From IMG/VR virus record IMGVR_UViG_3300042691_036107: 64,000 bases of DNA; one strand, 5' to 3'. The DNA is from an uncultured virus (IMG/VR IMGVR_UViG_3300042691_036107). Its lineage: Duplodnaviria > Heunggongvirae > Uroviricota > Caudoviricetes. The translations under genes were made by a program, and so were the position numbers. Below, in pieces: positions 3,386 to 20,924 of this stretch (positions within the stretch are counted from its first letter, which is position 1; every line of letters starts with the position of its first letter). The notes below the pieces were generated by a model. That model was not told the DNA's origin and did not search any database. It saw nothing but the letters and a program-made list of their open reading frames with translations.

Positions 3386-3391
3386 CTGCTC

Positions 3392-6099: not shown

Positions 6100-6444
6100 G
6101 TGCGTAGAGCGGTCAAGCGCGTAGAGCTGGAGGTCTGCTCTGACTGCTACGCTATCATTACAGGCTTCGACGTGACGCAATATTGTGACAATGACGTTAA
6201 TGCGCTCGATCGTTCTGCGCGTCAGCTCGAAGCAGACTGGCCGGAGCCCTGGGAGCTTCACGCGGGCGGCTGGGACGAGTGTGAAGCGTGCCAGGACAAC
6301 GACCGAGGTTGCGAGTCATACTTCTCCTGGCGCGCGTGTGAGAGCTGTCACGCGTCGTTGGGCGGCGATCGGTATCACGCGGTCGCGATCCGGTGGCTCA
6401 CGCCGGCCGAGGAGCTGCTTGACAGCGTAGGGGAGCTGCCTTGA
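6100..6444 (+). CDS. Cys-rich hypothetical protein with PAExL tag
   Basis: CxxC pairs; ends RWLTPAEELL. Confidence 0.7.
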   Translation: MRRAVKRVELEVCSDCYAIITGFDVTQYCDNDVNALDRSARQLEADWPEPWELHAGGWDECEACQDNDRGCESYFSWRACESCHASLGGDRYHAVAIRWLTPAEELLDSVGELP

Positions 6445-6602
6445 CTGAAGTACGCATCGCCGTGATCGCGTACAGTCAGGTCAAAGGGGGTCGTCTGCAG
6501 GCCCGAAGTCCTTTGTTCAGGAACAGGCAATACACCTGGCTAGGCTGCAGGCTCGTACGTGTCGTGCGGCCGGCTCAGCAACTCGCGGAGATGCAGCGAT
6601 GA
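6441..6602 (+). CDS. FGE C-terminal-like cassette A1
   Basis: Manual translation MTEVRIAVIAYSQVKGGRLQARSPLFRNRQYTWLGCRLVRVVRPAQQLAEMQR. Confidence 0.65.
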   Translation: MTEVRIAVIAYSQVKGGRLQARSPLFRNRQYTWLGCRLVRVVRPAQQLAEMQR

Positions 6603-6787
6603 GCGACAGAACTACGGCGCAAGGTCTTCCAATCCGCCTGTGTGCTTGCCGTGGCGCGAGCTGCTTATCCTCTACGCTGCAGCTTGACCTTCCGATTCGT
6701 TCTTGGCCTGACTCGAACATAACTTTCGGGTTTCGGCTCATCCGTGTCGTTCGACCGGCTTGTCTGCTCGCGGAGGCGGGAAGATGA
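6599..6787 (+). CDS. cassette A2
   Basis: ...CRGASC...FGFRLIRVVRPACLLAE. Confidence 0.7.
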   Translation: MSDRTTAQGLPIRLCACRGASCLSSTLQLDLPIRSWPDSNITFGFRLIRVVRPACLLAEAGR

Positions 6788-6969
6788 GCCCCAAGCATAC
6801 GATGCAAGCCCTCATCTACCGTACATGTAGTAGTTGCGGTGGAAGTATATGGTCATGGGCACAGGCGCTCAAGATAACTTCGCGTTCCGGGCCGGACAAA
6901 GGCATGACTACAGGCTTCCGACTTGTTCGGCGCCTTGGTCCGGCTCAGGCCCTCGTGGAGATGAAGTGA
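6784..6969 (+). CDS. cassette A3
   Basis: ...CGGSIW...TGFRLVRRLGPAQALVEMK. Confidence 0.75.
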   Translation: MSPKHTMQALIYRTCSSCGGSIWSWAQALKITSRSGPDKGMTTGFRLVRRLGPAQALVEMK

Positions 6970-7130
6970 TTTACCGGGTCACAAACGGAGGCTCTTGCAT
7001 TTTCACGGCATGGAGCGCGAGCATCATGAACCGCGGTTGGAGTTCGCCCGCCGGCACAGTCCGCACACAGGGCTTTCGTCTGCTCAGGCGACTCACGCCG
7101 GCCATGCAGCTCGTCGAGGTACAGCGATGA
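6966..7130 (+). CDS. cassette A4
   Basis: ...NGGSCIF...QGFRLLRRLTPAMQLVEVQR. Confidence 0.75.
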   Translation: MIYRVTNGGSCIFTAWSASIMNRGWSSPAGTVRTQGFRLLRRLTPAMQLVEVQR

Positions 7131-7309
7131 ACATGATCTACAGCTCGTTGCACGGCGGCGGCTGGTGGACCTCCATGGGCCACATACACATACGCCCGAT
7201 GGATCTTCGTCGCGTCCGGCAGCGGAAAGACATCCAGATGCGCGGTTTCGGCTTTCGACTCGTTCGTCAGCTTCTGCCTGCTCAGGTGATCGCCGAGGTG
7301 AAGCTGTGA
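7127..7309 (+). CDS. cassette A5
   Basis: ...HGGGWW...FGFRLVRQLLPAQVIAEVKL. Confidence 0.75.
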   Translation: MNMIYSSLHGGGWWTSMGHIHIRPMDLRRVRQRKDIQMRGFGFRLVRQLLPAQVIAEVKL

Positions 7310-7491
7310 GCGTCGCCGGTCGCTCGTTTCGTGGCGGAGGCTGGTGGAATTCTTCGGCGTCTATGCGCGTCACGGATCGTTTCAGGTTTCAGCCCGATTA
7401 CTGCTTCAACGTCCTTGGTCTTCGCCTGACCCGGCGGCTCGTTCCCGCTCAACAATTGCTCGAAGTAACAATCCACGAAGAGGAGGTCCCT
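7306..7491 (+). CDS. cassette A6 (no stop; reads in frame into the FGE scaffold)
   Basis: RSFRGGGWWNSSASMRVTDRFRFQPDYCFNVLGLRLTRRLVPAQQLLEV. Confidence 0.7.
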
Positions 7492-7947
7492 GTGAGCAAG
7501 CTCGATGAAGTGACGTACGTGGTCGACGGTGTGGAGTTCGTGTTCGTTCGGACGCAGATGCCGAACGGCGACATCATGGAGATCCAGAAGTACCCCATGA
7601 CCCAGGCGCAGTACCGGGCGCTGACGGGCAAGGATCCGTCGCACTTCAAGGGCGACCAGAACCCCGTGGAGTCCGTCAACTGGTACGAGTCGGTCGAGGC
7701 CGGCAAGCTCCTGTCGGAGAAGACGGGCCGCGAAGGCTTCCGTCTCCCGACCGAGGAAGAGTGGGTCTGGGCGGCGAAGGCCGGGGATGACTTCGAGTGG
7801 GCGGGCTCGAACAACCCCGATGAGGTCGCCTGGCACGACGGGAACTCGGGCGGCAGCACGCACCCGGTCGGCCAGCTCAAGCCGAACGGCTGGGGCATCT
7901 ACGACATGTCCGGGAACGTGTGGGAGTGGTGCCTGGATGAGTTCTAG
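7492..7947 (+). CDS. C-terminally truncated formylglycine-generating enzyme (FGE/SUMF1, CLec-fold) domain protein
   Basis: AGGAGGT RBS + GTG; YPMTQAQY, PVESVNWY, FRLPTEEEWVWAA, HPVGQLKPNGWGIYDMSGNVWEWCLD then stop. Confidence 0.9.
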   Translation: MSKLDEVTYVVDGVEFVFVRTQMPNGDIMEIQKYPMTQAQYRALTGKDPSHFKGDQNPVESVNWYESVEAGKLLSEKTGREGFRLPTEEEWVWAAKAGDDFEWAGSNNPDEVAWHDGNSGGSTHPVGQLKPNGWGIYDMSGNVWEWCLDEF

Positions 7948-8112
7948 AACCAGGATCACGCGCGGCGGAAGTTTCTTCGCAGTCTTACGCTGGCGTGCTC
8001 GATCGAGGACAGGGGCGGACACGAAGAAGTGTACCGTCGCTATCCCGCGGTCGGCTTCCGCCTCGTCCGTCGTCTTCGTCCTGCCATGCAACTCAGCGAG
8101 GTAACACCGTGA
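7937..8112 (+). pseudogene. cassette A7, frameshifted
   Basis: MSSRTRITRGGSFF in one frame; ...YPAVGFRLVRRLRPAMQLSEVTP* in the -1 frame. Confidence 0.65.
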
Positions 8113-8282
8113 GTCAGTTCAGACGGGTCGTCGGAGGATGCTACTTCCAGATGCGTCACGTGATGACCCGTCTTCTGCCGAAGCAAGGCGGACTTCAAAG
8201 CAGCAGGAAAGAACGATCGACAGGCCTTCGGCTCGTTCGCCGGCTCAGGCCTGCACAGGCTTTGGCCGAGGAGGTCCGATGA
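8109..8282 (+). CDS. cassette A8
   Basis: VVGGCYF...TGLRLVRRLRPAQALAEEVR. Confidence 0.75.
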   Translation: MSQFRRVVGGCYFQMRHVMTRLLPKQGGLQSSRKERSTGLRLVRRLRPAQALAEEVR

Positions 8283-8455
8283 AACGACAGGATCGGCCTC
8301 GGCCACAGCGCGGTGGCGATTGCTTCGCGCGCTCTTATTGGTCTGAGATCGTGAGTTCAGACTCATCTCATCCGCGGTGGACCGCGACAGACTCCGGCTT
8401 CCGGCTCGTCCGTCTTCTTCTACCGGCTCAAGCCTTGGCAGAGGTGAAGCTGTGA
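8279..8455 (+). CDS. cassette A9
   Basis: QRGGDCF...SGFRLVRLLLPAQALAEVKL. Confidence 0.75.
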   Translation: MKRQDRPRPQRGGDCFARSYWSEIVSSDSSHPRWTATDSGFRLVRLLLPAQALAEVKL

Positions 8456-8631
8456 AGATCAAGTTTACCTTCCACTCTGGCGGTTCTTTCGCGGATCCCA
8501 CTAGCTCTCGCTGCCAGCTCGGCGCGGCTGACTTCTCGCACCCTAAGACGCGAAATAGCGACATTGGATTTCGGCTCGTCCGTCAACTCACGCCCGCACA
8601 GGCACTAGCAGAGGTCACCTGTGAGCAGTGA
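8452..8631 (+). CDS. cassette A10
   Basis: HSGGSF...RNSDIGFRLVRQLTPAQALAEV. Confidence 0.8.
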   Translation: MKIKFTFHSGGSFADPTSSRCQLGAADFSHPKTRNSDIGFRLVRQLTPAQALAEVTCEQ

Positions 8632-8791
8632 AGAGCGGTGTATCAGAGGAGGCGGTTGTCACACGATGCGCCGCTTCGCTGCAACCGGAGACGATAGAGT
8701 CGCCGAAGAAGAAACCCGACGAACTCACGATCTCGGTCTTCGACTCGTCCGTCGTCTTCTGCCTGTTCAGGCTCTCGCGGAGGTGAAGTGA
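8621..8791 (+). CDS. cassette A11
   Basis: Manual: RCIRGGGCH...HDLGLRLVRRLLPVQALAEVK. Confidence 0.75.
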   Translation: MSSEERCIRGGGCHTMRRFAATGDDRVAEEETRRTHDLGLRLVRRLLPVQALAEVK

Positions 8792-8955
8792 CCTGGAACA
8801 GAAAGATCTACGGGGGTTGCATCTTTGTTCCGCCCTCCAATTGTACGGTGCGTTCGTGCATCCCGTACAACGAAGCTGCGGCTGCGCGCGGCGTCAGCTT
8901 CCGGCTAGTCAGGCGTCTACGGCCCGCTCAGGCGATTTCCGAGGTGACGTTGTGA
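8788..8955 (+). CDS. cassette A12
   Basis: Manual: KIYGGCIF...GVSFRLVRRLRPAQAISEVTL. Confidence 0.75.
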   Translation: MTWNRKIYGGCIFVPPSNCTVRSCIPYNEAAAARGVSFRLVRRLRPAQAISEVTL

Positions 8956-9104
8956 TCATCGGTGGCTCTTGGGGCTTTCCCCATAAGGTCTCTCGTCTGG
9001 CTCACGTGGACCACGTGATGCGAGATTGGAAAGACGATGACATAGGTTTCAGGTTGATCCGACGCCTACGCCTCGCTCAGGTGCTTGCGGAGATCGGGCG
9101 ATGA
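8952..9104 (+). CDS. cassette A13
   Basis: IIGGSW...DDIGFRLIRRLRLAQVLAEIGR. Confidence 0.8.
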   Translation: MIIGGSWGFPHKVSRLAHVDHVMRDWKDDDIGFRLIRRLRLAQVLAEIGR

Positions 9105-9262
9105 TGCTCGTCCTTCGGGGTGGCGGCTGGTACAGCACGATCCGTGCCATCCCGTTTACTCGACGGGATCGTGGCGAGGCAGACGATCGTTTCGAGTCTT
9201 TCGGATTTCGACTTGCCCGGCGACTTGTACCTGCTCAAGCGCTCAGTGAGGTGACGTTGTGA
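9101..9262 (+). CDS. cassette A14
   Basis: Manual: VLRGGGWY...SFGFRLARRLVPAQALSEVTL. Confidence 0.8.
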   Translation: MMLVLRGGGWYSTIRAIPFTRRDRGEADDRFESFGFRLARRLVPAQALSEVTL

Positions 9263-9435
9263 TCGACAAACGACGTTATCGGCCGCAATCTGGCGGTTGT
9301 TACTTCGACCCGCGGACATGGGCGCAACTGGACCGGGGAGATGCATCTCCTCCCGGTATCATCGATACCGAGCTAGGCTTTCGCTTGATTCGGCGACTCA
9401 CGCCGGCTCAGATGCTTGCAGAGATGGGGGCATGA
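9259..9435 (+). CDS. cassette A15
   Basis: Manual: QSGGCYF...ELGFRLIRRLTPAQMLAEMGA. Confidence 0.8.
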   Translation: MIDKRRYRPQSGGCYFDPRTWAQLDRGDASPPGIIDTELGFRLIRRLTPAQMLAEMGA

Positions 9436-9608
9436 GTCGCCGTTTGCTCGGTGGAGGTTGTTTCGCCCTGTTGCACCGGTGTGTCGTGCGTGGACCCGAC
9501 CACGCAAGCTACGGCTCGCGTTTCGCTTGTTCTATCGGCTTTCGGCTTGCTCGGAAGATCACGCCTGCAGAGCTGCTCGTGGAGGGGTGTTGTGCTGAAG
9601 GTCGGTGA
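9432..9608 (+). CDS. cassette A16
   Basis: LLGGGCF...SIGFRLARKITPAELLVE. Confidence 0.75.
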   Translation: MSRRLLGGGCFALLHRCVVRGPDHASYGSRFACSIGFRLARKITPAELLVEGCCAEGR

Positions 9609-9825
9609 TCGTGTTCGCTTCACGAAGCGGAGCATCAGTCTCTATTATGGCCGGAATGGAACGGTGCTGAGCTTGACGCCAATACCTCAGGCAGTGCTTG
9701 TGGCAGTCTGCATGGACGGTGATCCGGCCGCCTGCGAAGTAGCTTTCTTGTCCGAGAGCCTACGGCTGCTCACGCCCGCAGAGTTGCTCGTTGAAGCAGC
9801 GGAGAAGGAGGAGTCAGATGAGTAG
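9592..9825 (+). CDS. small KOW/SH3-like protein with PAELL tag
   Basis: LKVGDRVRF...LRLLTPAELLVE. Confidence 0.7.
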   Translation: MLKVGDRVRFTKRSISLYYGRNGTVLSLTPIPQAVLVAVCMDGDPAACEVAFLSESLRLLTPAELLVEAAEKEESDE

Positions 9826-10165
9826 CTGGCCATGGGCGCGCTTCGTCGTACGCCCAGACACGAACGGCGCGCTGATCGGTAAGGACTTCGGGGCGTTCAC
9901 TCCTGGATACGTTTACGAAGCTCGACTGATCATGGATGAAGTCGTGATCTATCGACGCGGGCGGTCTCCCCTCTTGATCGAAGGCGGTGTAGGCGAGCTT
10001 CGCCGTTTCGGTGTCGCGATCTGTAACGGCAATGAGACCCAGCACATCATGTCCGACGGCGATCACCTGCTGACGCTCGAAGAGCTGGCGCGCCGTGTCG
10101 AAGAGCAGACCGGCATCAACCCCCTCACCCCTGGCGAGCGCTTGGCGCTCTTGAACGGAGACTGA
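9818..10165 (+). CDS. hypothetical protein with tag-like C-terminus
   Basis: AGGAGG RBS; ends PLTPGERLALL. Confidence 0.65.
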   Translation: MSSWPWARFVVRPDTNGALIGKDFGAFTPGYVYEARLIMDEVVIYRRGRSPLLIEGGVGELRRFGVAICNGNETQHIMSDGDHLLTLEELARRVEEQTGINPLTPGERLALLNGD

Positions 10166-10168
10166 AAC

Positions 10169-10621
10169 ATGAGCGAAGTCGAGCGGAAATACACGGTCTT
10201 TCAGGAAGCGGGAAGAGGACGGAAGAAGTGCGGCGGCTGTGAGGTGTTCGTCGGTGTCCGTACGAACACCTGCCCGCAGTGCGGTCACGTCTTCCAGAAG
10301 AGCGAGAAGTCGGAGCCGGTAAAGCCGGAGCCGTTGGACGTGGAGCCCCAGCAAGAGCCGCGGGCGCAGACGGCCACGACGACGGAACGCCCAAAAAATG
10401 GGGCGCAACTGATCACCATCCCTGCGGGAAGGTGCCCGGTTCCGTTGCCGTCTTCGAGCGCCGACGATGTGCTCGCGTGGTCCGAGGCTGTCCGCGAGAA
10501 GTGCCGGCCGAAGGTGGAGCTGACGACCGAGGCGCTCCAGTATTGGGTTCGGGACTTCTTCGGCTACGGGACGCCAGACCATCGGGCAGCCGTGGCTCAT
10601 CTGGCCGAGCAAGAGCCTTAA
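10169..10621 (+). CDS. zinc-ribbon-containing protein
   Basis: CGGC...CPQCGHVF. Confidence 0.7.
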   Translation: MSEVERKYTVFQEAGRGRKKCGGCEVFVGVRTNTCPQCGHVFQKSEKSEPVKPEPLDVEPQQEPRAQTATTTERPKNGAQLITIPAGRCPVPLPSSSADDVLAWSEAVREKCRPKVELTTEALQYWVRDFFGYGTPDHRAAVAHLAEQEP

Positions 10622-10700
10622 TGGCATACAGGTCCGGGCCGGCGCCTCTGTCAGGGATCGACACCCTGACGGACCTTTCCTTACCAGGAGAGCTGAGAAC

Positions 10701-10943
10701 ATGGTGAAGAAAGTGAAGATTCCCGTGTTGATCGAAGTCGATCCCCTCGGTCGACCGGTCGACGAAGATGCGGTGTACCTCGACGGTGAGAACTCGATCC
10801 TGTGTGCGTTCTGTGCGGTCGAGAGCCTCGACGACATGGTGCCGCACTTCAAGCCGGTCGAGCGCATCACGTTGTCAGGTGACGAAGGGAGCTGCACGTG
10901 TGACCAGTGTTCGTACGAGCTATCGACGCTCGTCGAGGCCTGA
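10701..10943 (+). CDS. small CxxC protein
   Basis: AGGAG RBS; CAFC, CDQC. Confidence 0.6.
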   Translation: MVKKVKIPVLIEVDPLGRPVDEDAVYLDGENSILCAFCAVESLDDMVPHFKPVERITLSGDEGSCTCDQCSYELSTLVEA

Positions 10944-11163
10944 ACGTGAACGTCCTGACAGATCTCCCCACGCCGTTTCCGGCGCTCGCGCTCGTGCTCG
11001 GCGGCGAGCTGTTCCTCGTCGTCTACGACAACGGGGACGGCTTGACCGTGATGACGCCGCCGCCTTCCACGCGGCAGAAGGCGGCTCGCGCGCAGGCAGA
11101 GAAGCAGTTCGGCAAGGAACGCAACAAGTGGGCCGACGGTGTTCGGCCAAACGGGAGTGGAAG

Positions 11164-11667: not shown

Positions 11668-14199
11668 ATGACGAAGAAAGTCGAGCGGTTTGCCTTCACC
11701 CTGCGGGATTTTCGAGGCAAGGTGAAGCGCTGCTACAACGTGGTCAAGACGGTCCCGTCGGCGCCGAAGCTGACGAAGAAGTTGACGCATCACATCTACA
11801 TCGTGGACGAGTCCGGCTCGATGTATTACGCGATGCGAGACCTCAAGGTCATGATCGAGAAGACCATGACGGTCGAGGAGTTCAAGGACTCCAAGATGAT
11901 GGTCACGCTCCTCGGGTACAGCTCGAAGGGCGACCTCGCCGTGTACTTCAGCCGGGTGTCGATCGCGGACGTGATGGCGCCGGGAAGTGCTCACGTCGAG
12001 GCGATTCGCCGTTTGCACGCGCGTGGCATGACGTGTGGCTCGCAGGCCTTCGAGAAGGCGCTGGAGTTCGTGACTCCCGGCGAAACGACCGGCATCAGCC
12101 TTCACACTGACGGCTACTTCAACGACCGTTCCGCATCCGACGAGCAGCGTGAATTCGATCGGCTCATCGAGGTCTGCAAGAAGACCCACCCCAACGTGTT
12201 CGTGAACACGGTCGCGCACGGCTCCTGGGCCGACTTCAAGCTCCTGTCGAAGATCGCCAACGCGCTCTCCGGCAAGTGCGTGGTCGCGCAAGACGTGAAG
12301 CAGGTCTACAAGGCCCTGCACGACACGAGCGCGCTGCTGGCCGGGCAGGTCGAGCCGGCGATCGACGCCGAGCTGCCCGACAACGCCGACTACCAGCTCT
12401 TCGTGAGCCGGGCCGCCGGGCGGGTAAACGGCGCCGCGGGAGATCTGGTCATCCAGGGCATCAAGCCCACGGACGACCGGGCGATCTACCACTTCAAGGA
12501 GACGGTCGACGAGGCGGTCGGTCTGCCACTGCTCGACGATGTAGAGCCGCACGTGGTTGCGGCCTTCGCGCAGGCGCAGTTGGCCGAAGGCCAGCTCAAC
12601 ACCGCGAAGTATGCCCTGGTCACGCTGCGTGATCCGCAACTCCTCGGGCTCCACGGTCGTGCCCTGACCAACAAGGCCCTGTCGAACATGGGTAGCGACC
12701 TGATGGCGGTCGTCAACGGCAGCCTGCCGCTCCCGACGACGCGGCCGGCGAGCTACGGTATCGAGTCCATCAAGCTCAGCGTCCTCGACCTGTTCGACGA
12801 GCTGGAAGCACAGCGGAACGCCTTCGAGGTGCACATGCCCTCGCTCTGGGCGAACTACCAGCGCCGGGGCCTGAAGCGGCTGTCCGGCACCTGGGAGGAA
12901 GGCAAGTTCGTTCCGGCCGAGTACAAGCAGGTGCCGCGGAAGAACGGCGACTACGCGCAGGTGAGGTCGTTCGACATCAAGCGCAACGCGGCGACGATCA
13001 ACCTCCTGGTGAGCCAGCCGGTCAGGCTGGTTGACCTCGCCGGGAACGAGATCGACGAGGTGGCGCGTGTCGACCTGACCGACCTCCGCTCGTACAACAA
13101 CGTCACGCTCGTCGCGGACGGCGAGTTGAACGTCACGAAGTTGACGGTGAAGTTCAAGAAGAAGCATCTCTTCAACACCTTGAGCGACCTCGGCGTGCTG
13201 ACGGGGGTCGTGCGAGGTGACACTTTCGACCCGATGCGCGACTACGAGATCGACTTCGGCGGGTTGCCGTTGATCGCCTTCGACCAGAGCTTCACGAACC
13301 CGAGCATGGCGTTCCGCAAGGTCCTGTTCCTCAAGACCATCATCGGCGTGGTGAGTGCGTGCGTGCGCGGCTCGACCGAGAGCGCCACGTACACGAGCGA
13401 ACAGATCGTCGAGCTGAAGAAGTTCTACATGACGCCGAACTTGAACTTCTCGCCCCCGAGCACGGTGCCGTACCGGGACGTGAAGGAGGCTATCTCCACG
13501 GGGCTGGTCGACAGCTACCCGCGCTTCGCGATCGAGATCGGCGACACGAACATCCTAGACGCAGGCAAGCTGCACTCGGCGAACGAGTGCTTGCGCCGTT
13601 TCTTCGTGTCGCCGACGGACGCGAAGGCCAAGATCGACTTCTCGATGTGGGCCGACGGCGCGAACTTCGCCCGGAAGGAGCTGACCAGCCGGACCAAGAT
13701 CACGAAGGTCGACGAGTACATGCGTCCGATCTTCGAGGAACTCTGCGGATTCAGCACGGGCGCCATCGTGGCGGCGTGCGAGGCGACGGGTTGGAAGGCG
13801 GGTGATGACATTCACTTCGCGGCGGCCGCGCTGGTCGACACGATCGGGAAGAGGGACAAGCTCTCGAAGGAGACGATCGCCGTGGTCCTCGACTCGATTA
13901 AGCGCCCCTGCGAGATCGAGCTGGAGCGTGTCTACGCCGAGGAGATCACGCCGCTCGCGTTCTACATCGGCGCGACCGGGCTGCTGCCCGACAGCAAGGA
14001 CTTCGAGTTCGTGACGATGCTCACGGCCGAGCAGCTCGTCGAGAAGTACCCGAACCTCAACCCGGACAAGGACCAGCGCGAGGGCTTGTTCTTCGTCGTC
14101 GGCGACACGGTGCTGTCGGTCGCGGTGACGAACGAGCTGTTCTCGACGCCTGCCGGTGTCGAAGCGGCGAAGCAGATCCAGAACGAAGTCTCGGCCTAG
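11668..14199 (+). CDS. large vWA-domain protein
   Basis: 843 aa; MIDAS-like VDESGSM and HTDGY; AGGAG RBS. Confidence 0.8.
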   Translation: MTKKVERFAFTLRDFRGKVKRCYNVVKTVPSAPKLTKKLTHHIYIVDESGSMYYAMRDLKVMIEKTMTVEEFKDSKMMVTLLGYSSKGDLAVYFSRVSIADVMAPGSAHVEAIRRLHARGMTCGSQAFEKALEFVTPGETTGISLHTDGYFNDRSASDEQREFDRLIEVCKKTHPNVFVNTVAHGSWADFKLLSKIANALSGKCVVAQDVKQVYKALHDTSALLAGQVEPAIDAELPDNADYQLFVSRAAGRVNGAAGDLVIQGIKPTDDRAIYHFKETVDEAVGLPLLDDVEPHVVAAFAQAQLAEGQLNTAKYALVTLRDPQLLGLHGRALTNKALSNMGSDLMAVVNGSLPLPTTRPASYGIESIKLSVLDLFDELEAQRNAFEVHMPSLWANYQRRGLKRLSGTWEEGKFVPAEYKQVPRKNGDYAQVRSFDIKRNAATINLLVSQPVRLVDLAGNEIDEVARVDLTDLRSYNNVTLVADGELNVTKLTVKFKKKHLFNTLSDLGVLTGVVRGDTFDPMRDYEIDFGGLPLIAFDQSFTNPSMAFRKVLFLKTIIGVVSACVRGSTESATYTSEQIVELKKFYMTPNLNFSPPSTVPYRDVKEAISTGLVDSYPRFAIEIGDTNILDAGKLHSANECLRRFFVSPTDAKAKIDFSMWADGANFARKELTSRTKITKVDEYMRPIFEELCGFSTGAIVAACEATGWKAGDDIHFAAAALVDTIGKRDKLSKETIAVVLDSIKRPCEIELERVYAEEITPLAFYIGATGLLPDSKDFEFVTMLTAEQLVEKYPNLNPDKDQREGLFFVVGDTVLSVAVTNELFSTPAGVEAAKQIQNEVSA

Positions 14200-14295: not shown

Positions 14296-14511
14296 ATGCA
14301 CTTCCGAGCCAAGCCGCTCCCCGCATGGGAGAAGCGCATATTGTGGTTCCTGGCGGAGAAGGGACGCCGGGTCCCGTTCCAGTGGGAGACACGCTCCGGC
14401 CGCTGGCGGTGCGCCCGTTGCGGAGATGTCGTTGATGCGGTGACCAAGCCGGTTCCGTTCTGTCGAGAGTGCGAAGGACCGATCAAAGCTTTGATCGAGG
14501 TGAAGTCATGA
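14296..14511 (+). CDS. small zinc-finger protein
   Basis: CARC...CREC. Confidence 0.55.
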   Translation: MHFRAKPLPAWEKRILWFLAEKGRRVPFQWETRSGRWRCARCGDVVDAVTKPVPFCRECEGPIKALIEVKS

Positions 14512-14672
14512 AAGCCGTGTACCTTGTTCATGGTGGGTGTTGGTCGAACGTTATCTCGTTCCTTCGCCCTAGCTACGGGGGCCAGGTGTTTCCATCCGGT
14601 GCGCGGACGATCGGTTTTCGCCTGGTTCGCGCCCTACGACCAGCGCAGCAACTCGCCGAGGTGAAGCCATGA
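14508..14672 (+). CDS. cassette B1
   Basis: VHGGCW...TIGFRLVRALRPAQQLAEVKP. Confidence 0.8.
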   Translation: MKAVYLVHGGCWSNVISFLRPSYGGQVFPSGARTIGFRLVRALRPAQQLAEVKP

Positions 14673-14839
14673 AACTCGATCGATGCTGCAAAGGCGGGGC
14701 TTTAAGAGATTCTCCATCGTCCTGCCGAATCCGTACAAGAGGCGCAGAGACCGCGCATGACGGTTGGTGTGTGGACATCGGCCTTCGTTTGTACCGGCGG
14801 CTCACCCCTGCTCAGCAACTCGGCGAGGTGCGGCTGTGA
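14669..14839 (+). CDS. cassette B2
   Basis: Manual: RCCKGGAL...DIGLRLYRRLTPAQQLGEVRL. Confidence 0.75.
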   Translation: MKLDRCCKGGALRDSPSSCRIRTRGAETAHDGWCVDIGLRLYRRLTPAQQLGEVRL

Positions 14840-15003
14840 AGTGTGATCGGGTTTGTCTCGGTGGGGGGCACAGAGACCAAGAAGTTCGTTGTAAACCGAT
14901 CGCGTCCGCGGCTGATGTCGATGAGCAACGGTTTCTGGACATCGGCTTTCGCCTGTTCCGTCGGCTCATGCCTGCTCAGGCGCTCAGCGAGGCGACGACA
15001 TGA
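14836..15003 (+). CDS. cassette B3
   Basis: RVCLGGGH...DIGFRLFRRLMPAQALSE. Confidence 0.75.
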   Translation: MKCDRVCLGGGHRDQEVRCKPIASAADVDEQRFLDIGFRLFRRLMPAQALSEATT

Positions 15004-15170
15004 CCGGAGACAAGAACCGCAAGTGCGAAGGTGGTGCTTGGAACTCCAATCAGTGGGGCCGTCGTATGTTCGAGGGGGCGGCACCAGATAGCGTAATAGA
15101 TCCTGACTTGGGCTTTCGCCTTGTCCGTCGCCTTGCACCCGCGCAACAGCTTTCGGAGATCCGTGGATGA
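15000..15170 (+). CDS. cassette B4
   Basis: Manual: KCEGGAW...DLGFRLVRRLAPAQQLSEIRG. Confidence 0.75.
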   Translation: MTGDKNRKCEGGAWNSNQWGRRMFEGAAPDSVIDPDLGFRLVRRLAPAQQLSEIRG

Positions 15171-15349
15171 AACTGGATTCAGTCATCATCGGCTGTTCGT
15201 ACAGCAGCTCTTGCGAGGTTTGGCTGCTTCATCACGACATGAACAAGCGGCGTATTACCTGGCTTAAGTCGATCAGAGACGAAGACACGAGTCTTCGCCT
15301 GATCCGGCGTTTATCCCCTGCTCAAGCCCTCGGGGAGATTCAACGATGA
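15167..15349 (+). CDS. cassette B5
   Basis: IIGCSY...DTSLRLIRRLSPAQALGEIQR. Confidence 0.7.
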   Translation: MKLDSVIIGCSYSSSCEVWLLHHDMNKRRITWLKSIRDEDTSLRLIRRLSPAQALGEIQR

Positions 15350-15513
15350 GCCTGTACAGAGCCGTGATGGGATGCGCTGCTGATGTCGACATCTATTCGG
15401 TTCAGCTTGTGTATCCTTTCACAGGCGAGAGCACGGAACGTAGTGAAGACACGGGTTTCCGCCTGTACCGTCGACTTACACCCGCGCAGCAACTTGCGGA
15501 GATCAGACCATGA
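15346..15513 (+). CDS. cassette B6
   Basis: Manual: RAVMGCAA...DTGFRLYRRLTPAQQLAEIRP. Confidence 0.75.
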   Translation: MSLYRAVMGCAADVDIYSVQLVYPFTGESTERSEDTGFRLYRRLTPAQQLAEIRP

Positions 15514-15677
15514 TCGCGGCCGTCAAACTGCGAGGCACGTGTTTCGGCAGCCGCGTCGGTTGGGTCTCAAATAGAACGGCGGTGGTAGTGCAGAAAGGGC
15601 GTAGTAGTTCTACCTGGGGTTTTCGGCTGTGCCGATGCTTCAGTTTCGCGCAAGCGCTCGCTGAGGTGAAGCCTTGA
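15510..15677 (+). CDS. cassette B7
   Basis: Manual: KLRGTCF...TWGFRLCRCFSFAQALAEVKP. Confidence 0.7.
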   Translation: MIAAVKLRGTCFGSRVGWVSNRTAVVVQKGRSSSTWGFRLCRCFSFAQALAEVKP

Positions 15678-15835
15678 ATAAGGTAGTCTGCGGAGGGACT
15701 TACGCTTTGTTCCAAGCTTTCGCGAAGCTCACGTGGCTGCGGTTCACCTTCCGCCCAGCGGACAAAGCTAGGGTTGGCCTACGCCTCGTTCGCACGGTCC
15801 TGCCCGCGGAAGCGCTGTCTATGGTGAAGACATGA
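15674..15835 (+). CDS. cassette B8
   Basis: Manual: VVCGGTY...RVGLRLVRTVLPAEALSMVKT. Confidence 0.7.
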   Translation: MNKVVCGGTYALFQAFAKLTWLRFTFRPADKARVGLRLVRTVLPAEALSMVKT

Positions 15836-15990
15836 CTCCAATGTGCGCGCGTGGAGGCTCTTGGTTCGTTGAACGGGTGCTTCTACGCTACAGGCTCGAC
15901 TTGAGCGGTAAAGACCAATACCGCACGGTAGGGCTTCGGCTGGTTCGGCGATTGCGCCCGGCGCAGGCTCTGTCAGAGATGCAACCATGA
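15832..15990 (+). CDS. cassette B9
   Basis: Manual: CARGGSWF...TVGLRLVRRLRPAQALSEMQP. Confidence 0.8.
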   Translation: MTPMCARGGSWFVERVLLRYRLDLSGKDQYRTVGLRLVRRLRPAQALSEMQP

Positions 15991-16181
15991 GCCGGAAAGA
16001 TCAAGGCAGTCGAGGTGGCTCTTTCAGCTTCCACCGCCGCTGGTCTCGCTGGCGCCACCGTGCAATGGATCCTGTGACATCCAGAAACTTGGACGCCGGA
16101 TTTCGTCTGTTTCGCCGGCTCAAGCCGGCACAATCGCTCGGCGAGGTCGGGCATGAAGACTACAACAATGAGGAGGAATGA
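15987..16181 (+). CDS. cassette B10
   Basis: SRGGSF...DAGFRLFRRLKPAQSLGEV. Confidence 0.8.
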   Translation: MSRKDQGSRGGSFSFHRRWSRWRHRAMDPVTSRNLDAGFRLFRRLKPAQSLGEVGHEDYNNEEE

Positions 16182-16184
16182 CAG

Positions 16185-17543
16185 ATGGCGAAGATCGAGA
16201 CGACGCTGAGCGCGAGCTACCAGCGGGGGACTTGGGCGTTCAAGGACGCCATGAGGGAACTGATCAGCAACGCGCTGGACGGTGAGACGAGGCTGCGCCC
16301 GCTCGGTTATGGCCGGGCGTCGCTGAAGTACGACGAGCGGACCATGACAGCGACGATCGGCAACATCGGCGTCACGGTCCCGACCAAGGCCTTGCTCATG
16401 GGAACGAGCGAGAGCCGGGACGTGGATGCGGCGATCGGCCAGTTCGGCGAGGGACTGCCGATGGCGTTGCTCGTCCTCGCCCGTCTGGGACGGGACGTGG
16501 TGATCTACAACGGCGAGGAGAAGTGGACGCCGAGCATCGAGCGGTCGGACCGCTTCGACGGCGAGCACATCCTGGTCATCAACACGCGGAAGGTGCAGGA
16601 TCGGGGCCGGTTCGAGGTCAACGTCTCGCCGGTAACGCGGGAGCAGTGGGAGGAGGCACGCGCGCTGTTCCTGCACTTCGATCCAACGTTCGACAAGAGC
16701 CAGGCGGTACAGTTGGACGAAGAACAAGTCCTGTTGCAACCCGAGTTCCGGGGACGCCTTTACTGCAAGGGCGTGTTCGTGCAGGCCCGCAAGGACCTGG
16801 CTTTCGGTTACGACCTCAATCTCGTTCTCAACCGCGATCGCTCGTTCTTGAACGAGTGGGATTTGCAGGACAAGCTCGGTCGTCTGTTGAGCAACGTCGT
16901 CTCGCACGTCAACGAGAATGAGTCCTTCGCTCACAACCTCGCAGAGCGGGTACTCAACGAGGATCTGCTGGAAGGCAAAGACGCCTACAGTTCGTTGGTC
17001 TACAATTCGACGTTCCAGCGCATCATGCAGGAGCTGTTCCAGGCGCGCTACGGCGAGACTGCCGTGCCTGTCGAGACGGCTGATGATGAGAAGGAAGCGC
17101 ACAGCTTCGACTTGCGCCCTGTGCGGGTCGGCCGGACAGCGCTCAAGGTCCTGCAAGGCAGCATCGGCTCGCTGTCGCAGATCCGGGAGCGCCGCGCGAG
17201 TGAGGTTGTGTCCGTCCATGACTTCGACAGCCTCAGCTCGGCGGAGCGGCAGAACCTCATGACGCTGCAGGCGCTCGTGGAGGCGTGCGACAGGGGGACC
17301 TCGCTTGTTTGCGTATCGTACCGCGACCCGAGCACGCCCTACACGCGGAAGGGTCGTGAGATCTGCATCAACCGGACCGGGCTGCTGGAGCTGGGCGCGG
17401 CGATCCATCGGGTCGTCTCGGCCCTCGGCGGGATGAGCGATCAGCCCCCGACGCTCGATGTTGCCGTCAGTCTGCTCCAGCGTATGATCGAAGGCAACGA
17501 CACCGTGCTGATGCAGCGCCTGCTCGCGGCTCGGGGTGCGTGA
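16185..17543 (+). CDS. GHKL (HATPase_c)-like ATPase domain protein
   Basis: RELISNALD (N box), IGQFGEGL (G box). Confidence 0.75.
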   Translation: MAKIETTLSASYQRGTWAFKDAMRELISNALDGETRLRPLGYGRASLKYDERTMTATIGNIGVTVPTKALLMGTSESRDVDAAIGQFGEGLPMALLVLARLGRDVVIYNGEEKWTPSIERSDRFDGEHILVINTRKVQDRGRFEVNVSPVTREQWEEARALFLHFDPTFDKSQAVQLDEEQVLLQPEFRGRLYCKGVFVQARKDLAFGYDLNLVLNRDRSFLNEWDLQDKLGRLLSNVVSHVNENESFAHNLAERVLNEDLLEGKDAYSSLVYNSTFQRIMQELFQARYGETAVPVETADDEKEAHSFDLRPVRVGRTALKVLQGSIGSLSQIRERRASEVVSVHDFDSLSSAERQNLMTLQALVEACDRGTSLVCVSYRDPSTPYTRKGREICINRTGLLELGAAIHRVVSALGGMSDQPPTLDVAVSLLQRMIEGNDTVLMQRLLAARGA

Positions 17544-17992
17544 TGCAGCTCTTTCTCGATGAACTCGAAGTCGAGGCAGCGGCGCTCTACGCTCAATTGT
17601 GTACGATGAGAGGTGCTCCTCGTGCACGTCTGCTCTATGAGCCGTCGATCTTGACGGGGTTGCGCGATCATGTCGCCGTGCTGGAGAAGTACGGGCAAGA
17701 CACGAGCGTCGTACGGGTGGTTACTCGCGTCATAGGAGGGGCTGTTCCAGCAAGTTACGGCTCGCCGGCAACGACAGATGAAGTCAGGATCGACTCGTCT
17801 TTCAACCAGTCTCTCGCGTTCTTGCTCACGCGCAAGCAGCACTGGCGCGCGGGCGTGACGACGATGGCTTCGACAGGCCGGATCAAAGCGCAGAAGATCG
17901 CGTACGCCGGGAACGGACCCATCTGGAAACACCAGATCATGCGTGCCGGTCAGACGGTCGGCGTCTTCGTGATGCCCGGGAGCGATCCATGA
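17543..17992 (+). CDS. hypothetical protein
   Basis: Coupled ORF in + strand operon. Confidence 0.6.
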   Translation: MQLFLDELEVEAAALYAQLCTMRGAPRARLLYEPSILTGLRDHVAVLEKYGQDTSVVRVVTRVIGGAVPASYGSPATTDEVRIDSSFNQSLAFLLTRKQHWRAGVTTMASTGRIKAQKIAYAGNGPIWKHQIMRAGQTVGVFVMPGSDP

Positions 17993-18510
17993 CCGAAGAC
18001 GAGAAGCTCTTCTGCCCTTCGTGCTGGTCGCCGAATGTGGAGCGGTTCGAGGGCGGGATCCCCGGTCGAGCGCCACTCCTGCTGGCTTACTGCGACTACT
18101 GCTCGTGGGTCGGCGAGGTCTGGCGCTTGGCCTATTGGCCGAAGCACGTGCAAGGGCATGAACCGCCGCCCAATCTGGTTCGTCTCTCGATGCTGCCCCG
18201 TGCGTTGTGGAAGGGTCGGGCGGTCCTGCATCCATCAAGCTCGGACGAACACGGGCCGCGCTGGCTGGTCAAGGACGAACCAGACGCTGAAATTCAGACG
18301 CCCCCGAGCTGGGATTTCGACGTGGGTATCGTCATCGAGTTCGGCTTCGACAAGTTCATGCAGGACTGGCGTGTTCGCTTCCTGCTCGGGTACGGCGGCG
18401 GTCCTTCTTCGACGCTGACTTACGGCGCGATGTTCTTGTGGACGCCCGCCGAGCCAACGATGGCCGAGCAGCTAGCCGCGATGGCTGAAGGAGAAGAAGA
18501 TGGCGACTAA
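17989..18510 (+). CDS. zinc-ribbon protein with tag-like C-terminus
   Basis: CPSC, CDYC; ends TMAEQLAAMAE. Confidence 0.65.
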   Translation: MTEDEKLFCPSCWSPNVERFEGGIPGRAPLLLAYCDYCSWVGEVWRLAYWPKHVQGHEPPPNLVRLSMLPRALWKGRAVLHPSSSDEHGPRWLVKDEPDAEIQTPPSWDFDVGIVIEFGFDKFMQDWRVRFLLGYGGGPSSTLTYGAMFLWTPAEPTMAEQLAAMAEGEEDGD

Positions 18511-19012
18511 TCTCTGTACGAGCTTCTGCCCGAAGTGCGGGTACTGGGTGCGGTTGGGGGACCTGCGAGGGAAGCCGATCGAGTTCCGAAGGACCGGTGA
18601 ATACGCACCCGAGTTGGGTTGCCGCTTCGACTGCCCCTGCGGAGAGGTCTACTTCGCGATTTGGCGGCGTAGGGACACGTTCTGGGGGCCAGATTTGATG
18701 CGAGACGCGGACAGGGACGAACTCGGGTTCAAGACCGGCCAGCGAATCCAGAACGAGCACAAGGGCAAGTTCTACATCCAGCGCAAGGACTGGCGTGAAG
18801 AGACGGGCACGTTCACGATCGACCTGTCGTACTACTGCACCTATCGGGACGAAGACCTGACCGAAGAAGACGGCGAAGAACGCGAGCGCATCCTGAGCGG
18901 TCAACTTGATCCTCGGCGGTTGTGCAAGGACAACGCCCACCATACCGAGCTGGTCTGGGGGCATGGATCGCCCGCGGTTCTGCTCGCCGGCATGAAGGAA
19001 GAGGAGAAGTGA
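18500..19012 (+). CDS. Cys-rich hypothetical protein with tag-like C-terminus
   Basis: CPKC, CPC; ends SPAVLLAGMK. Confidence 0.65.
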   Translation: MATNLCTSFCPKCGYWVRLGDLRGKPIEFRRTGEYAPELGCRFDCPCGEVYFAIWRRRDTFWGPDLMRDADRDELGFKTGQRIQNEHKGKFYIQRKDWREETGTFTIDLSYYCTYRDEDLTEEDGEERERILSGQLDPRRLCKDNAHHTELVWGHGSPAVLLAGMKEEEK

Positions 19013-19494
19013 TGCCGAACTACCCGATGCCGGAATGGGCGGTCGTTCCGCCGGCGCTGCTTCTGATATTCGGCGTCACCGTTGAGGATCGCTCGCTCGA
19101 TGGACTAGAAAGAGCGTTCAGCTTGACGTGGACCGAGCCTGACTCGGGTATCCGGTGCGAGGTGTTCGTCGGATGGCAGGACAACACGCCAGGCAAGGTC
19201 AGGCCTCTGTCATTCGTGAACGGCTACGTGTGGCCTCCCGAGGGATGTCCGGTCTTCGATAGCGTCGATGTCGAAGTGCCCGGTGGCGTCACCTACCCGT
19301 CTGACGGCGTGTGGTGCGGGAACGGCAAGGCGGGCTTCGACACCCAGCACAGCTCGATGCCCCGAGAAGAGTTCACGGTCGTCCGTGTCATGCACGAAAC
19401 GCGATCGTTCGCGGAGCAGGTTGCGGCGCTGTGCTCGCCATCCGTGCTTCTGCTCTCAGCCATGAAGAACAACCAGGAAGGAGATGAAAGATGA
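19012..19494 (+). CDS. hypothetical protein
   Basis: TGATG coupling; NGYV..GGVTY..GFDTQH phage-like motifs. Confidence 0.6.
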   Translation: MPNYPMPEWAVVPPALLLIFGVTVEDRSLDGLERAFSLTWTEPDSGIRCEVFVGWQDNTPGKVRPLSFVNGYVWPPEGCPVFDSVDVEVPGGVTYPSDGVWCGNGKAGFDTQHSSMPREEFTVVRVMHETRSFAEQVAALCSPSVLLLSAMKNNQEGDER

Positions 19495-19733
19495 CGTTCG
19501 ACGGTAAGGAAGAAGTCGGGTTCTATCAGGCGGTCGTGCTCAAGAGTGGGCTCAAGCTTTACGCCAAGACCGGCATCAGGCCCAACCGGGCTTGGACTCC
19601 GACGGCGATGATGAAGCTCGCGAGATCGATCACGGGCAAGCCGCTGAAGGCGCGCGACTACGAAGGTGCTGTCGCGGCGCTCCAAGTCTGGATCGACGAG
19701 CAGGTCGCCGCGCGACAGGCGAAGGAGGAGTGA
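19491..19733 (+). CDS. hypothetical protein
   Basis: AGGAG RBS. Confidence 0.65.
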   Translation: MTFDGKEEVGFYQAVVLKSGLKLYAKTGIRPNRAWTPTAMMKLARSITGKPLKARDYEGAVAALQVWIDEQVAARQAKEE

Positions 19734-20104
19734 TGCGGAAGGTGAGTCGGAACGCCGTTCAGGACTTCTGGCAGTGCAAGCCGGCACGGCACAGCAACAC
19801 TTGGATCGTCCAGGAAGGCGACTGGACCGTGATGCTCCTGCACGGTAACGCAATCGCGAGACGCCGAGGCCTTCGGCTGGAAGTCAGCTCGGCCGGTTGG
19901 ACGACCTCGACCACGCGGGAGCGCCTGAACGGCGTGCTCAGCGAGGTCAACGCTCACGCCTGGATCAAGGACGGCGTGCTGTACGCGGCCGGTCCCGGCT
20001 TGGACTGCGAAGGCCCTGTCGAGCTGGACCGGACCTGGACGGCTGTGAAGTTCGGGACGCCGGCCGAGCAGCTCGTGTACGCGACGAGGAAGACCGAGCC
20101 GTGA
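19733..20104 (+). CDS. hypothetical protein with PAEQL tag
   Basis: LHGNAIA..AGWTTSTTRERLN; ends GTPAEQLV. Confidence 0.7.
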   Translation: MRKVSRNAVQDFWQCKPARHSNTWIVQEGDWTVMLLHGNAIARRRGLRLEVSSAGWTTSTTRERLNGVLSEVNAHAWIKDGVLYAAGPGLDCEGPVELDRTWTAVKFGTPAEQLVYATRKTEP

Positions 20105-20265
20105 CCGAGTTCAAGCTGAAAGGCGGAAGCTGGCGCTCTCTAGCAGCGTCCGCCAGACTTCCCCGACGCCTCGTGGAACTGCCTGACGACAAGGGCTTCT
20201 CCAGGGGCTTTCGTCTGATCAGGAGGCTCACGCCTGCCCAGCAGCTCGCAGAGGTGGCGCCTTGA
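20101..20265 (+). CDS. cassette C1
   Basis: KLKGGSW...SRGFRLIRRLTPAQQLAEVAP. Confidence 0.8.
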   Translation: MTEFKLKGGSWRSLAASARLPRRLVELPDDKGFSRGFRLIRRLTPAQQLAEVAP

Positions 20266-20426
20266 TCCCGTGTTACGGCGGCTCGTTCAACGGTCCTTCC
20301 GGCTGGACCCGGGTTGCCGGATTTCCAGGAAGTTCGTACCGCGCCTCAGACATTCATCTGAGCTTGGGCTTCCGGCTCGTTCGCCGGCTCAAGCCAGCGC
20401 AGGTGCTCAGCGAGGTGCAGCGATGA
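20262..20426 (+). CDS. cassette C2
   Basis: Manual: CYGGSF...SLGFRLVRRLKPAQVLSEVQR. Confidence 0.75.
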   Translation: MIPCYGGSFNGPSGWTRVAGFPGSSYRASDIHLSLGFRLVRRLKPAQVLSEVQR

Positions 20427-20590
20427 CGCGGTTCTACGGGTTCACGGGCGGCGGGTACAACGACGCGAAAGATTGGGCTCAGCCCGGCGTTGGTAGCTGT
20501 ATTAAACCGACCGAGCGCGTGAAGAGCTTCGGCTTCAGGCTGGTCCGTCGTATGAAGCTAGCGCAGGCCTTGGCGGAGGTGAAGCCGTGA
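20423..20590 (+). CDS. cassette C3
   Basis: FTGGGY...SFGFRLVRRMKLAQALAEVKP. Confidence 0.75.
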   Translation: MTRFYGFTGGGYNDAKDWAQPGVGSCIKPTERVKSFGFRLVRRMKLAQALAEVKP

Positions 20591-20757
20591 GGCAGCTACG
20601 AAGAGGTATCGCAGGAGGCTGCTTCGGATCCGACGTGTTCTCTACGAAGCCCGAGAAACTCGGAAGCGACGGGGTTCAGGTCAAGGACGATGACCTGGGC
20701 TTCCGGCTGGTCAGGCGTCTCGTTCCCGCTCAGATGCTCTCGGAGGTGAAGCCTTGA
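20587..20757 (+). CDS. cassette C4
   Basis: Manual: IAGGCF...DDLGFRLVRRLVPAQMLSEVKP. Confidence 0.75.
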   Translation: MRQLRRGIAGGCFGSDVFSTKPEKLGSDGVQVKDDDLGFRLVRRLVPAQMLSEVKP

Positions 20758-20924
20758 TCAAGCAAGCAGTGTCAATGCGTGGAGGCTGCTTCCTGTTCTT
20801 GGCTATGAGTGCACGTTTGAACTACCATATTCATGTAAACCGAGAGGGGTACATGTGGTCGCAATCTTTCCGCTTGGTCCGGCGTGTCGGACCGGCGCAA
20901 CAACTCGCCGAGATCAACCGATGA
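20754..20924 (+). CDS. cassette C5
   Basis: Manual: MRGGCF...QSFRLVRRVGPAQQLAEINR. Confidence 0.75.
   Translation: MIKQAVSMRGGCFLFLAMSARLNYHIHVNREGYMWSQSFRLVRRVGPAQQLAEINR

Follow-up and report, generated by a model that had tools for sequence, protein, structure and literature searches.

Why should a phage carry 31 short genes that each resemble the end of one protein domain, arranged around a single gene for this domain that lacks exactly that end? This question is raised by a 64,000-nucleotide stretch of DNA (hereafter, the window) from IMG/VR record IMGVR_UViG_3300042691_036107, an uncultured virus of the Caudoviricetes; according to the protein database, the window is part of a contig of 116,965 bp, of which ~53 kb lie outside it. 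The system in question comprises a truncated protein of the formylglycine-generating enzyme (FGE) family, which has the CLec fold and is referred to here as the core, and 31 small units of 50–64 amino acids (aa), referred to as cassettes. The original prediction, made from the DNA letters alone, proposed that the virus stores a library of alternative variable regions as separate peptides, which would complete the core in trans or serve as recombination donors. The identity of the cassettes, the truncation of the core, and a modeled complex of the two agree with the first part of this proposal, whereas its donor part does not stand. Our analysis favors, with a probability of about one half, the explanation that approximately 30 alternative variable segments each complete, in trans, one and the same constant core.

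Cassette arrays and the truncated core

The window is phage-like (its PHROG matches include an ATPase, a ParB-like protein, and a virion structural protein), has a GC content of ~0.60, and carries nearly all of its genes on the + strand. Six-frame motif scans and translation identified 31 cassette units, every one on the + strand and, as had been predicted, in three tandem arrays: array 1 (6441..9608; cassettes 1 to 16, interrupted by the FGE core after cassette 6), array 2 (14508..16181; the 10 cassettes 17 to 26), and array 3 (20101..20924; the five cassettes 27 to 31). A hidden Markov model (HMM) made from the cassettes matched exactly 31 places, and none besides, in the whole 64 kb, a self-match that is informative only on the absence of extra copies. 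Approximately 14 of the 31 cassette proteins were recovered in two protein-database searches. A scan for promoters and terminators gave no signal exceeding that of shuffled sequences, and no tRNA was found within the window.

A match to the FGE-sulfatase family (PF03781) was present in a single one of the 47 large open reading frames (ORFs) scanned. This ORF, the core (7492..7947, + strand), encodes 151 aa from a GTG start located 5 nt past a GAGGAGG motif and covers positions 66–193 of the 255 in the profile (E = 1.8e-25); the DMSGNVWEW core motif is likewise confined to it within the window. The protein ends in DMSGNVWEWCLDEF (...WEWCLDEF), followed by TAG, and is devoid of the last two strands of the fold and of the loop joining them, which bears out the claim that the one FGE-like gene of the window lies inside array 1 and lacks the C-terminal segment. 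Indeed, the PF03781 domain is complete only when core and cassette are summed. Read-through of the TAG at the end of the core was considered and rejected, since TAG is an ordinary stop in this DNA (22 of 101 crude ORFs).

The cassettes have a common layout, consisting of a short and often basic N-terminus, (R)GG(S/C/G)(W/F/Y), ~26 variable residues (the middle), GFRLVRRLxPAQxLAEV, 2–3 further residues, and a stop; the extra 12 residues RRLxPAQxLAEV are referred to as the tail. When 30 units were aligned (the broken cassette 7 was excluded), the first G of GG and the R, L, and R of GFRL.R were invariant, and P, A, Q, L, and E of the tail were each kept in 26–29 of the 30 units. GFRL and the tail are 65% identical between units vs. 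~10% for the middles, with a middle identity of 0.103 within arrays vs. 0.107 between arrays. An in-frame GG is located 20–45 aa ahead of GFRL in 25 of the 31 units, and the spacing between the two is exactly 28 aa in 14 of these 25 scorable units. The shared frame described in the original prediction is real in this alignment, except that cassettes 1, 2, and 21–23 have no clean GG.

Array 1 begins with cassette 1 (6441..6602; 53 aa, TTG start), which has an atypical spacing of 19 between GG and GCRL. It is followed by cassette 2 (6599..6787; 62 aa), in which RGAS replaces GG, cassette 3 (6784..6969; 61 aa), cassette 4 (6966..7130; 54 aa; PF03781 E = 0.14), cassette 5 (7127..7309; 60 aa), and cassette 6 (7306..7470), which starts with a GTG at 7306 and runs in frame, with no stop, into the core. 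Beyond the core lie cassette 7 (7937..8112), which is broken by a frame change, cassettes 8 (8109..8282; 57 aa) and 9 (8279..8455; 58 aa), cassette 10 (8452..8631; 59 aa; PF03781 E = 0.0025), which was used for the complex model presented below, and cassette 11 (8621..8791; 56 aa), which overlaps cassette 10 by 11 nt. The array continues with cassettes 12 (8788..8955; 55 aa), 13 (8952..9104; 50 aa), 14 (9101..9262; 53 aa; matching PF03781 singly), and 15 (9259..9435; 58 aa), and closes with cassette 16 (9432..9608; 58 aa), whose tail is of the PAE type (ITPAELLVE).

Array 2 begins with cassette 17 (14508..14672; 54 aa), another single match to PF03781, and continues with cassettes 18 (14669..14839; 56 aa), 19 (14836..15003; 55 aa), and 20 (15000..15170; 56 aa). 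GC replaces GG in cassettes 21 (15167..15349; 60 aa) and 22 (15346..15513; 55 aa), and GT does so in cassette 23 (15510..15677; 55 aa), which has the tail CFSFAQALAEV. The last units of this array are cassettes 24 (15674..15835; 53 aa, TTG start), 25 (15832..15990; 52 aa), and 26 (15987..16181; 64 aa), the latter with an acidic extension beyond the tail. Array 3 is composed of cassettes 27 (20101..20265; 54 aa), 28 (20262..20426; 54 aa), 29 (20423..20590; 55 aa), 30 (20587..20757; 56 aa), and 31 (20754..20924; 56 aa).

The cassettes were predicted to be separately encoded, which holds for all of them except cassette 6; cassette 7 is separate and broken. Cassette 6 is fused to the core by a 17-residue linker (EVTIHEEEVPVSKLDEV), giving a protein of 213 aa (protein 6; 7306..7947, + strand); the core also has an internal start, so that fused and free forms are both possible. 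Cassette 7 begins independently, with an ATG at 7937 that overlaps the last codons of the core; it reads MSSRTRITRGGSFF... and ends with a TAA at 8104. A 1-nt frame change places its RGGSFF in one frame and its GFRLVRRL in another, and the GFRLVRRLRPAMQLSEVTP frame ends with a TGA at 8112, which shares bases with the start of cassette 8. No difference from the window was seen in contigs of two runs that span 7557–8084 and 7904–8965; this agreement at the core TAG and at cassette 7, in which one of the two runs may be the source sample, argues that neither feature is a slip of a single assembly.

Coding constraint and homology of the cassettes

Are the cassettes genes or silent copies? In 29 of the 31 cassettes, the start codon overlaps the upstream TGA by 4 nt (ATGA, GTGA, or TTGA), and 28 have a Shine-Dalgarno (SD)-like GAGG or GGAG 5–12 nt before the start, which sits inside the conserved Glu-Val ("AEV") tail codons of the preceding unit. 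Judged by sequence, this is the arrangement of a translationally coupled operon, with overlapping stops and starts and an SD motif within the upstream gene. The codons of GFRLVRRLxPAQxLxE carry 1.1–2.0 bits at positions 1 and 2 and 0.03–0.9 bits at position 3, and both codon families are in use for the conserved Arg (CGN, AGG) and Leu (CTN, TTG). A single codon, the tail GAG, is invariant at each of its three positions, which would fit a second role as a ribosome-binding site. In addition, the frame is open in 30 of the 31 units despite the divergence of their middles, which is not expected without selection when ~3% of random codons are stops (our estimate from the base composition). The overlapping starts, the SD motifs, and the codon-position pattern indicate that the cassettes are old, translated-looking genes rather than silent copies, and selection on the encoded proteins therefore acts on their two ends and their length and not on the sequence of the middle. 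Protein-level selection of this kind rules out decayed pseudogenes, silent donors, and an RNA or DNA repeat.

The presence of many alternative end pieces beside one scaffold is also what a set of silent donors would look like, i.e., cassettes that recombination or gene conversion would move into the end of an expressed gene, as happens with pilS, vls, or Rhs orphans; the original prediction had named recombination donors as its alternative. The DNA gives it no support. All units have a single orientation, and the longest identical run between any two cassettes is 19 nt (median 8); third codon positions are randomized, units have their own start codon, SD motif, and stop, the core carries no resident in-frame cassette to swap, and no recombinase was found among the scanned ORFs. 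The listed contig pieces of four runs, compared with the window across the three arrays, showed 0–1 differences and no well-supported core-cassette junction variant, a comparison of contigs at a depth of ~2–6 in which rare variants are invisible and in which the four runs may share one campaign. Joints near 7944 (sides <30 nt) and the high depth at 7551–8067 (due to the FGE motif of other organisms) were not used. We consider silent donors to be the least probable of the explanations weighed here.

The relationship of the cassettes to the FGE/CLec fold was assessed with single sequences and with a profile. Five of the 31 single cassettes matched Pfam FGE-sulfatase, at profile positions 214–255 of 255 and with E values of 0.0025–0.31 that are below the cut-off, and the remaining 26 had no FGE match in Pfam. 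The cassette profile gave 19 matches in the PDB at E ≤ 10, of which 16 were FGE-type chains with the match in the final ~40 residues of each. TvpA of Treponema denticola ranked first (residues 255–291 of 294, E = 7.3e-4), and the three matches of other types (two acetyltransferases and one Fab) had E ≥ 0.75. Similarity to the end of the FGE domain, which the original prediction had named as a check, is thus weak in five single cassettes, absent from 26, and clear when the cassettes are taken as a profile. MAFFT also set the free cassettes on the RGGSW...GFR segment of full-length FGE homologues and, together with the match to TvpA, this supports the proposed identity of the cassettes as the C-terminal segment of the FGE/CLec domain. 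The full-length homologues stop 1–8 residues past GFR, and the cassette tail is therefore an extra element.

In formylglycine-generating enzymes, a catalytic cysteine pair is located in the C-terminal segment. No conserved Cys column is present in the cassette middles, and Cys is common only directly after GG (12 of 29). This points to the module of core and cassette being a binding domain rather than an enzyme, as TvpA is in the consulted part of its description (PMC5758913).

Tandem small genes with conserved and hypervariable parts might also be precursors of ribosomally synthesized and post-translationally modified peptides (RiPPs), that is, a library of peptides whose conserved ends serve for recognition, whose core is hypervariable, and which neighboring enzymes process. 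The gene upstream of array 1 (4692–6017) encodes an HExxH domain (DUF2201_N, E = 1e-27) with a weak similarity to mod_HExxH (E = 2e-4, below the cut-off), which would suit such a role. Against this stand the clear homology of the cassettes to a segment of a known fold, their fold-specific spacing, the matching core within the array, and the absence of a recognized RiPP enzyme among the 47 scanned ORFs, and we regard a precursor library as very unlikely.

The FGE-type C-terminus is the classic variable region of diversity-generating retroelements (DGRs), and three full-length FGE genes lie in tandem in Microcystis phages; the cassettes might accordingly have been produced by a DGR or be what is left of tandem FGE genes that decayed. 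The cassette HMM gave 0–4 matches in each of 157 other FGE-domain loci used as controls, nearly all of them within long ORFs, and the 31 units of the window are therefore far in excess of chance. Four matches in the control loci fell in short ORFs, three of which were inspected: those in L089 and L094 correspond to DGR template repeats beside reverse transcriptases, and no reverse transcriptase is visible near that in L119. L089 (4993–6185) and L094 (2809–4056) are ordinary DGR loci, in which a reverse transcriptase is followed by an Asn-rich template repeat. Within the window, three reverse transcriptase queries from control loci gave a best tblastn E value of 0.26 and none of the 47 scanned ORFs had an RVT match, in agreement with the claim that the system operates without a reverse transcriptase. 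There is also no pair of template and variable repeats with adenine-only differences in the window; the cassettes differ from each other throughout and by indels. Since 30 of the 31 units are intact and under protein-level selection, they are not pseudogenes, and an origin as DGR products or remnants is highly improbable.

Proposed completion of the core in trans

If the cassettes are translated segments of the FGE fold, can they be accommodated by the core? AlphaFold2 (AF2) predicted the core with a predicted local distance difference test score (pLDDT) >90, and a Foldseek search with this model returned TvpA first (PDB 2y3c; E = 2e-9, template modeling score 0.58), then PvdO, CarF, and formylglycine-generating enzymes, with the top 25 matches at E ≤ 0.001 all of FGE type. 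The fold-completing complex that had been predicted was obtained in the model of the core with cassette 10, for which the interface score ipSAE was 0.94 in each of three runs vs. 0.00 for the best of three controls; for the mark used, calibration gave 116 passes among 157 solved complexes and 2 among 215 mismatched pairs, figures that are rough here because we used our own alignments. At least 99% of the contacts agreed between runs, with a partner pLDDT of at least 79. In the model, GFRLV (residues 39–43) contacts core residues 30–36, 83–86, and 145–146, and the tail (residues 44–55) also touches the core. Beside an unrelated protein, cassette 10 had a pLDDT of 40, and P0264, a core-less relative of two units, had a mean pLDDT of 43.6 in AF2, so that cassettes alone are not predicted to fold. 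In a separate observation, MAFFT twice aligned GFRLVRRLxPAQxLAEV onto the N-terminal hairpin of the core (VEFVFVRTQMPNGDIMEI; 7535–7590), by chance or through a real likeness.

How would such a system operate? The micro-genes would be translated by termination-reinitiation, and each cassette peptide would associate in trans with the core, where its two conserved ends would restore the fold and its tail would add contacts. The variable middle would then form the surface that is mutated by DGRs in TvpA-type proteins, and one core could in this manner yield ~30 different binders without a reverse transcriptase, with cassette 6 additionally made as a fusion ahead of the core. Because no hydrophobic N-terminus is seen by eye in the core or the cassettes, and because the arrays are surrounded by non-structural genes, the targets might be expected inside the infected cell; host defense proteins are a speculative example.

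Relatives of the core indicate that its shape is not peculiar to this phage. A group of proteins (P0125–P0134; 153–182 aa, encoded on contigs of up to 36.8 kb) with 50–64% identity to the core end 4–6 residues past WEW, as ...WEWTSTKA, and have no fused cassette. Another protein, P0124 (68% identity), is a fusion of cassette, linker, and core like protein 6. Both the truncation of the core and the fusion are therefore conserved features, and split FGE domains may well exist in other genomes too. The conserved fusion and the internal start of the core, which allows both forms, would also suit a system with one working protein, the fusion of cassette 6 and the core, with free cassettes that compete or exchange at the same site as modulators. 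The lack of a fused cassette in P0125–P0134 speaks against this, and thirty diverged competitors under purifying selection are hard to justify by regulation alone; we consider such modulation improbable. A further relative, P0123 (224 aa), is identical to the core up to DMSGN and then continues into a GntR-type FCD domain; it is encoded on a contig of 1,110 bp and is probably a chimeric assembly.

A full HMMER pass of the cassette profile over 1.84 billion representative proteins gave 1,899 matches at E ≤ 0.001. Among the best 150 of these, three proteins outside the contig bear the tail (P0335, P0378, and P0296, the last with two tailed units in one chain), and many others are core-less proteins of 2–10 units. 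Examples of the latter are P0248 (188 aa, four units) and a set of two-unit proteins of 86–92 aa; the core-less RGGSW...GFRL set comprises the public metagenome proteins P0007–P0030, P0248, P0252, P0256, P0264, and P0276. In several core-less proteins of 86–88 aa, the first unit is identical and the differences are confined to the second, as in a DGR target.

Searches for the complete arrangement elsewhere gave the following results. Of 238 ORFs with the core motif, that of the window alone is truly truncated, two are clipped by contig ends, and two have an in-frame stop inside a complete gene. The core alignment found, among the matches listed, only ordinary FGE loci of up to 55% identity in viral contigs and in metagenome contigs. 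A degenerate DNA pattern of the truncated core had no match in viral contigs and one chance match, in a Streptomyces genome. No relatives of a neighboring phage protein were found in viral contigs, nor of P0017 in viral contigs or of P0248 in the phage collection. As a side observation, the phage FGE genes in L072 (3200–4700; the same as L077) and L159 (9953–10690) have a GFRV strand followed by TIRPTLLAEEMWEA..., a helix-like stretch resembling the cassette tail, and the L072 copy has an in-frame stop directly past RGGS.

A number of observations weigh against completion in trans, and the first of them concerns the tail. Its motif xPA(Q/E)xL is found in the last 26 residues of 9 of the 83 non-cassette ORFs vs. 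0.22 expected (500 shuffles, maximum 2), and nine times in the other 16,919 positions. At least eight of these tail-bearing ORFs are convincing, and the ninth (33893) is probably fortuitous. In otherwise unrelated proteins, (L/V)xPA(E/Q)xL sits 8–15 residues ahead of the stop, and ORFs with the tail motif end at 455, 844, 6444, 9825, 20104, 22343, 25850, and 29430 (and 21172). Five of the encoded proteins form a family, here termed GDRV (222–455, 632–844, 9592–9825, 20921–21172, and 29221–29430), of 69–83 aa with xxGDRV..., a β-rich middle, and a ...RLLTPAELLxE end; two of its members lie directly 3′ of arrays 1 and 3. The GDRV proteins match no Pfam or PHROG family and, in a word-indexed search, have no relatives outside this phage. 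Since the tail is present on at least eight unrelated proteins, it is not FGE-specific and is therefore a module of this phage lineage rather than part of the FGE domain. It may be a phage-wide docking or sorting peptide, and could equally address a common partner other than the core.

The remaining points concern the model and the genes themselves. The model shows that cassette 10 fits the fold, which may reflect recall of solved single-chain FGE structures, and it covers one of the 30 intact cassettes. In the AF2 model of protein 6, residues 1–55, which correspond to the cassette, are unplaced (pLDDT 45–49, with one homologue for this stretch in the alignment). One core gene to 30 cassette genes is an odd stoichiometry, and the many core-less proteins imply that a unit might work alone. 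Finally, a truncated core and cassettes side by side are known from this contig alone, of which 64 of 117 kb were examined.

Several of these points, namely the shared tail with its five GDRV proteins, the 30:1 gene ratio, the core-less multi-unit metagenome proteins, and the unplaced cassette 6, would be accounted for if the cassettes were autonomous micro-proteins, i.e., descendants of the FGE C-terminus that are now independent of the core, for example small basic peptides that hold a common partner with their tail and targets with their middles. The residues that the cassettes have kept (GG, the aromatic, and GFRL.R) are nevertheless those conserved in every FGE domain and those that pack against the core in the model, the 28-aa spacing is preserved, the core lies inside array 1 and is conserved in its truncated form, and lone units are predicted to be disordered. 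We regard autonomous micro-proteins as unlikely and keep them as a serious alternative, mainly on account of the tail shared with unrelated proteins.

Completion of one core by many cassettes, which we prefer, has a broader form that we put forward tentatively, as somewhat short of an even bet: the arrays could constitute a germ-line, antibody-like repertoire and be the first recognized member of a wider class of split CLec/FGE proteins that includes truncated cores and core-less strings, some of them diversified by DGRs. A class of this kind could have been overlooked, since genes of <300 nt fall outside what gene callers and DGR surveys retain. According to the portion consulted of one such survey, targets of <300 nt were omitted from de novo clustering (Roux et al., 2021; PMC8144416), and this omission may be a reason why small core-less units escaped notice. 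In the literature searched, mainly titles and the openings of abstracts, we found no earlier description of a split FGE or of a cassette array.

The CLec/FGE fold is the scaffold of the largest known natural protein diversification, that by DGRs. If completion in trans is correct, the same scaffold would also have been diversified by splitting off its variable segment and storing the versions as micro-genes, a natural use of protein-fragment complementation to build a repertoire. Binder libraries could then be designed compactly from one core and 55-aa peptides, and ~30 further targets would be expected in the conflict between phage and host. The locus also illustrates that tens of real genes of 50–64 aa can be overlooked.

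Neighboring genes and known systems

Upstream of array 1 lies a gene for an ATPase (3121–4695) that matches phrog_1297, with MoxR-type AAA_5 detected only at E = 0.006, below the cut-off. It is followed by the gene at 4692–6017, in which the DUF2201 HExxH domain is accompanied by a VWA-like domain (E = 8e-14). An 843-aa protein encoded between arrays 1 and 2 (11668–14199) has an N-terminus with a weak likeness to integrin I/vWA domains (E = 0.07). Directly 3′ of array 2, the ORF at 16185–17543 encodes a 452-aa protein that matches phrog_6077 (E = 7e-52); its N-terminus (...MRELISNALDG...) presumably resembles the N-box of GHKL/Hsp90-type ATPases. Two HNH_3 endonuclease genes (50785–51660 and 58554–59333), one with a NUMOD4 motif, probably encode homing endonucleases.

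Rhs/CdiA orphan toxin modules, pilS, and vls are systems in which alternative end pieces are stored beside an expressed scaffold, and the DNA recombination that joins the two needs shared sequence. The present arrays differ from such orphan or silent cassettes in that they share no nucleotide sequence of this kind and have translation signals on the units.

Side-by-side FGE domains, enzymatically unassigned and with 45–50% identity to the core, are found in Microcystis phages (Fukuivirus, e.g., MaMV-DL02 and Ma-LMM01), where one copy has a tail-like GFRVAETIRPTLLAEEMWEA extension. Unlike the system described here, the three copies examined are complete (185–245 aa) and unsplit, and are not accompanied by an array of micro-genes.

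In the portions consulted of two reports, MoxR-vWA ternary conflict systems combine hypervariable FGS (FGE-type) binders with an AAA+ ATPase and a vWA protein (PMC7159879; PMC10907252). The window is similar, at the level of domain matches only, in that genes for an ATPase and a DUF2201 VWA-like protein closely precede array 1. As far as these portions describe them, the MoxR-vWA systems are cellular, and their FGS domain, varied by DGRs, forms part of the vWA protein (Kaur et al., 2020; Dore et al., 2024).

The core-less metagenome proteins and the truncated cores present the same two halves as separate proteins, with the difference that the core-less units are joined in one polypeptide and have no tail (P0007–P0030, P0248, and P0256).

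The closest comparison is with the DGR variable proteins of the TvpA type, which have the same core fold and whose variable region is matched by the cassettes; in both, a constant scaffold is combined with a variable, ligand-binding C-terminal surface. In contrast to these proteins, no reverse transcriptase or template repeat is present in the window, an additional conserved tail extends past GFRLVR, and the variable segment is encoded by separate genes, in 31 fixed germ-line versions.

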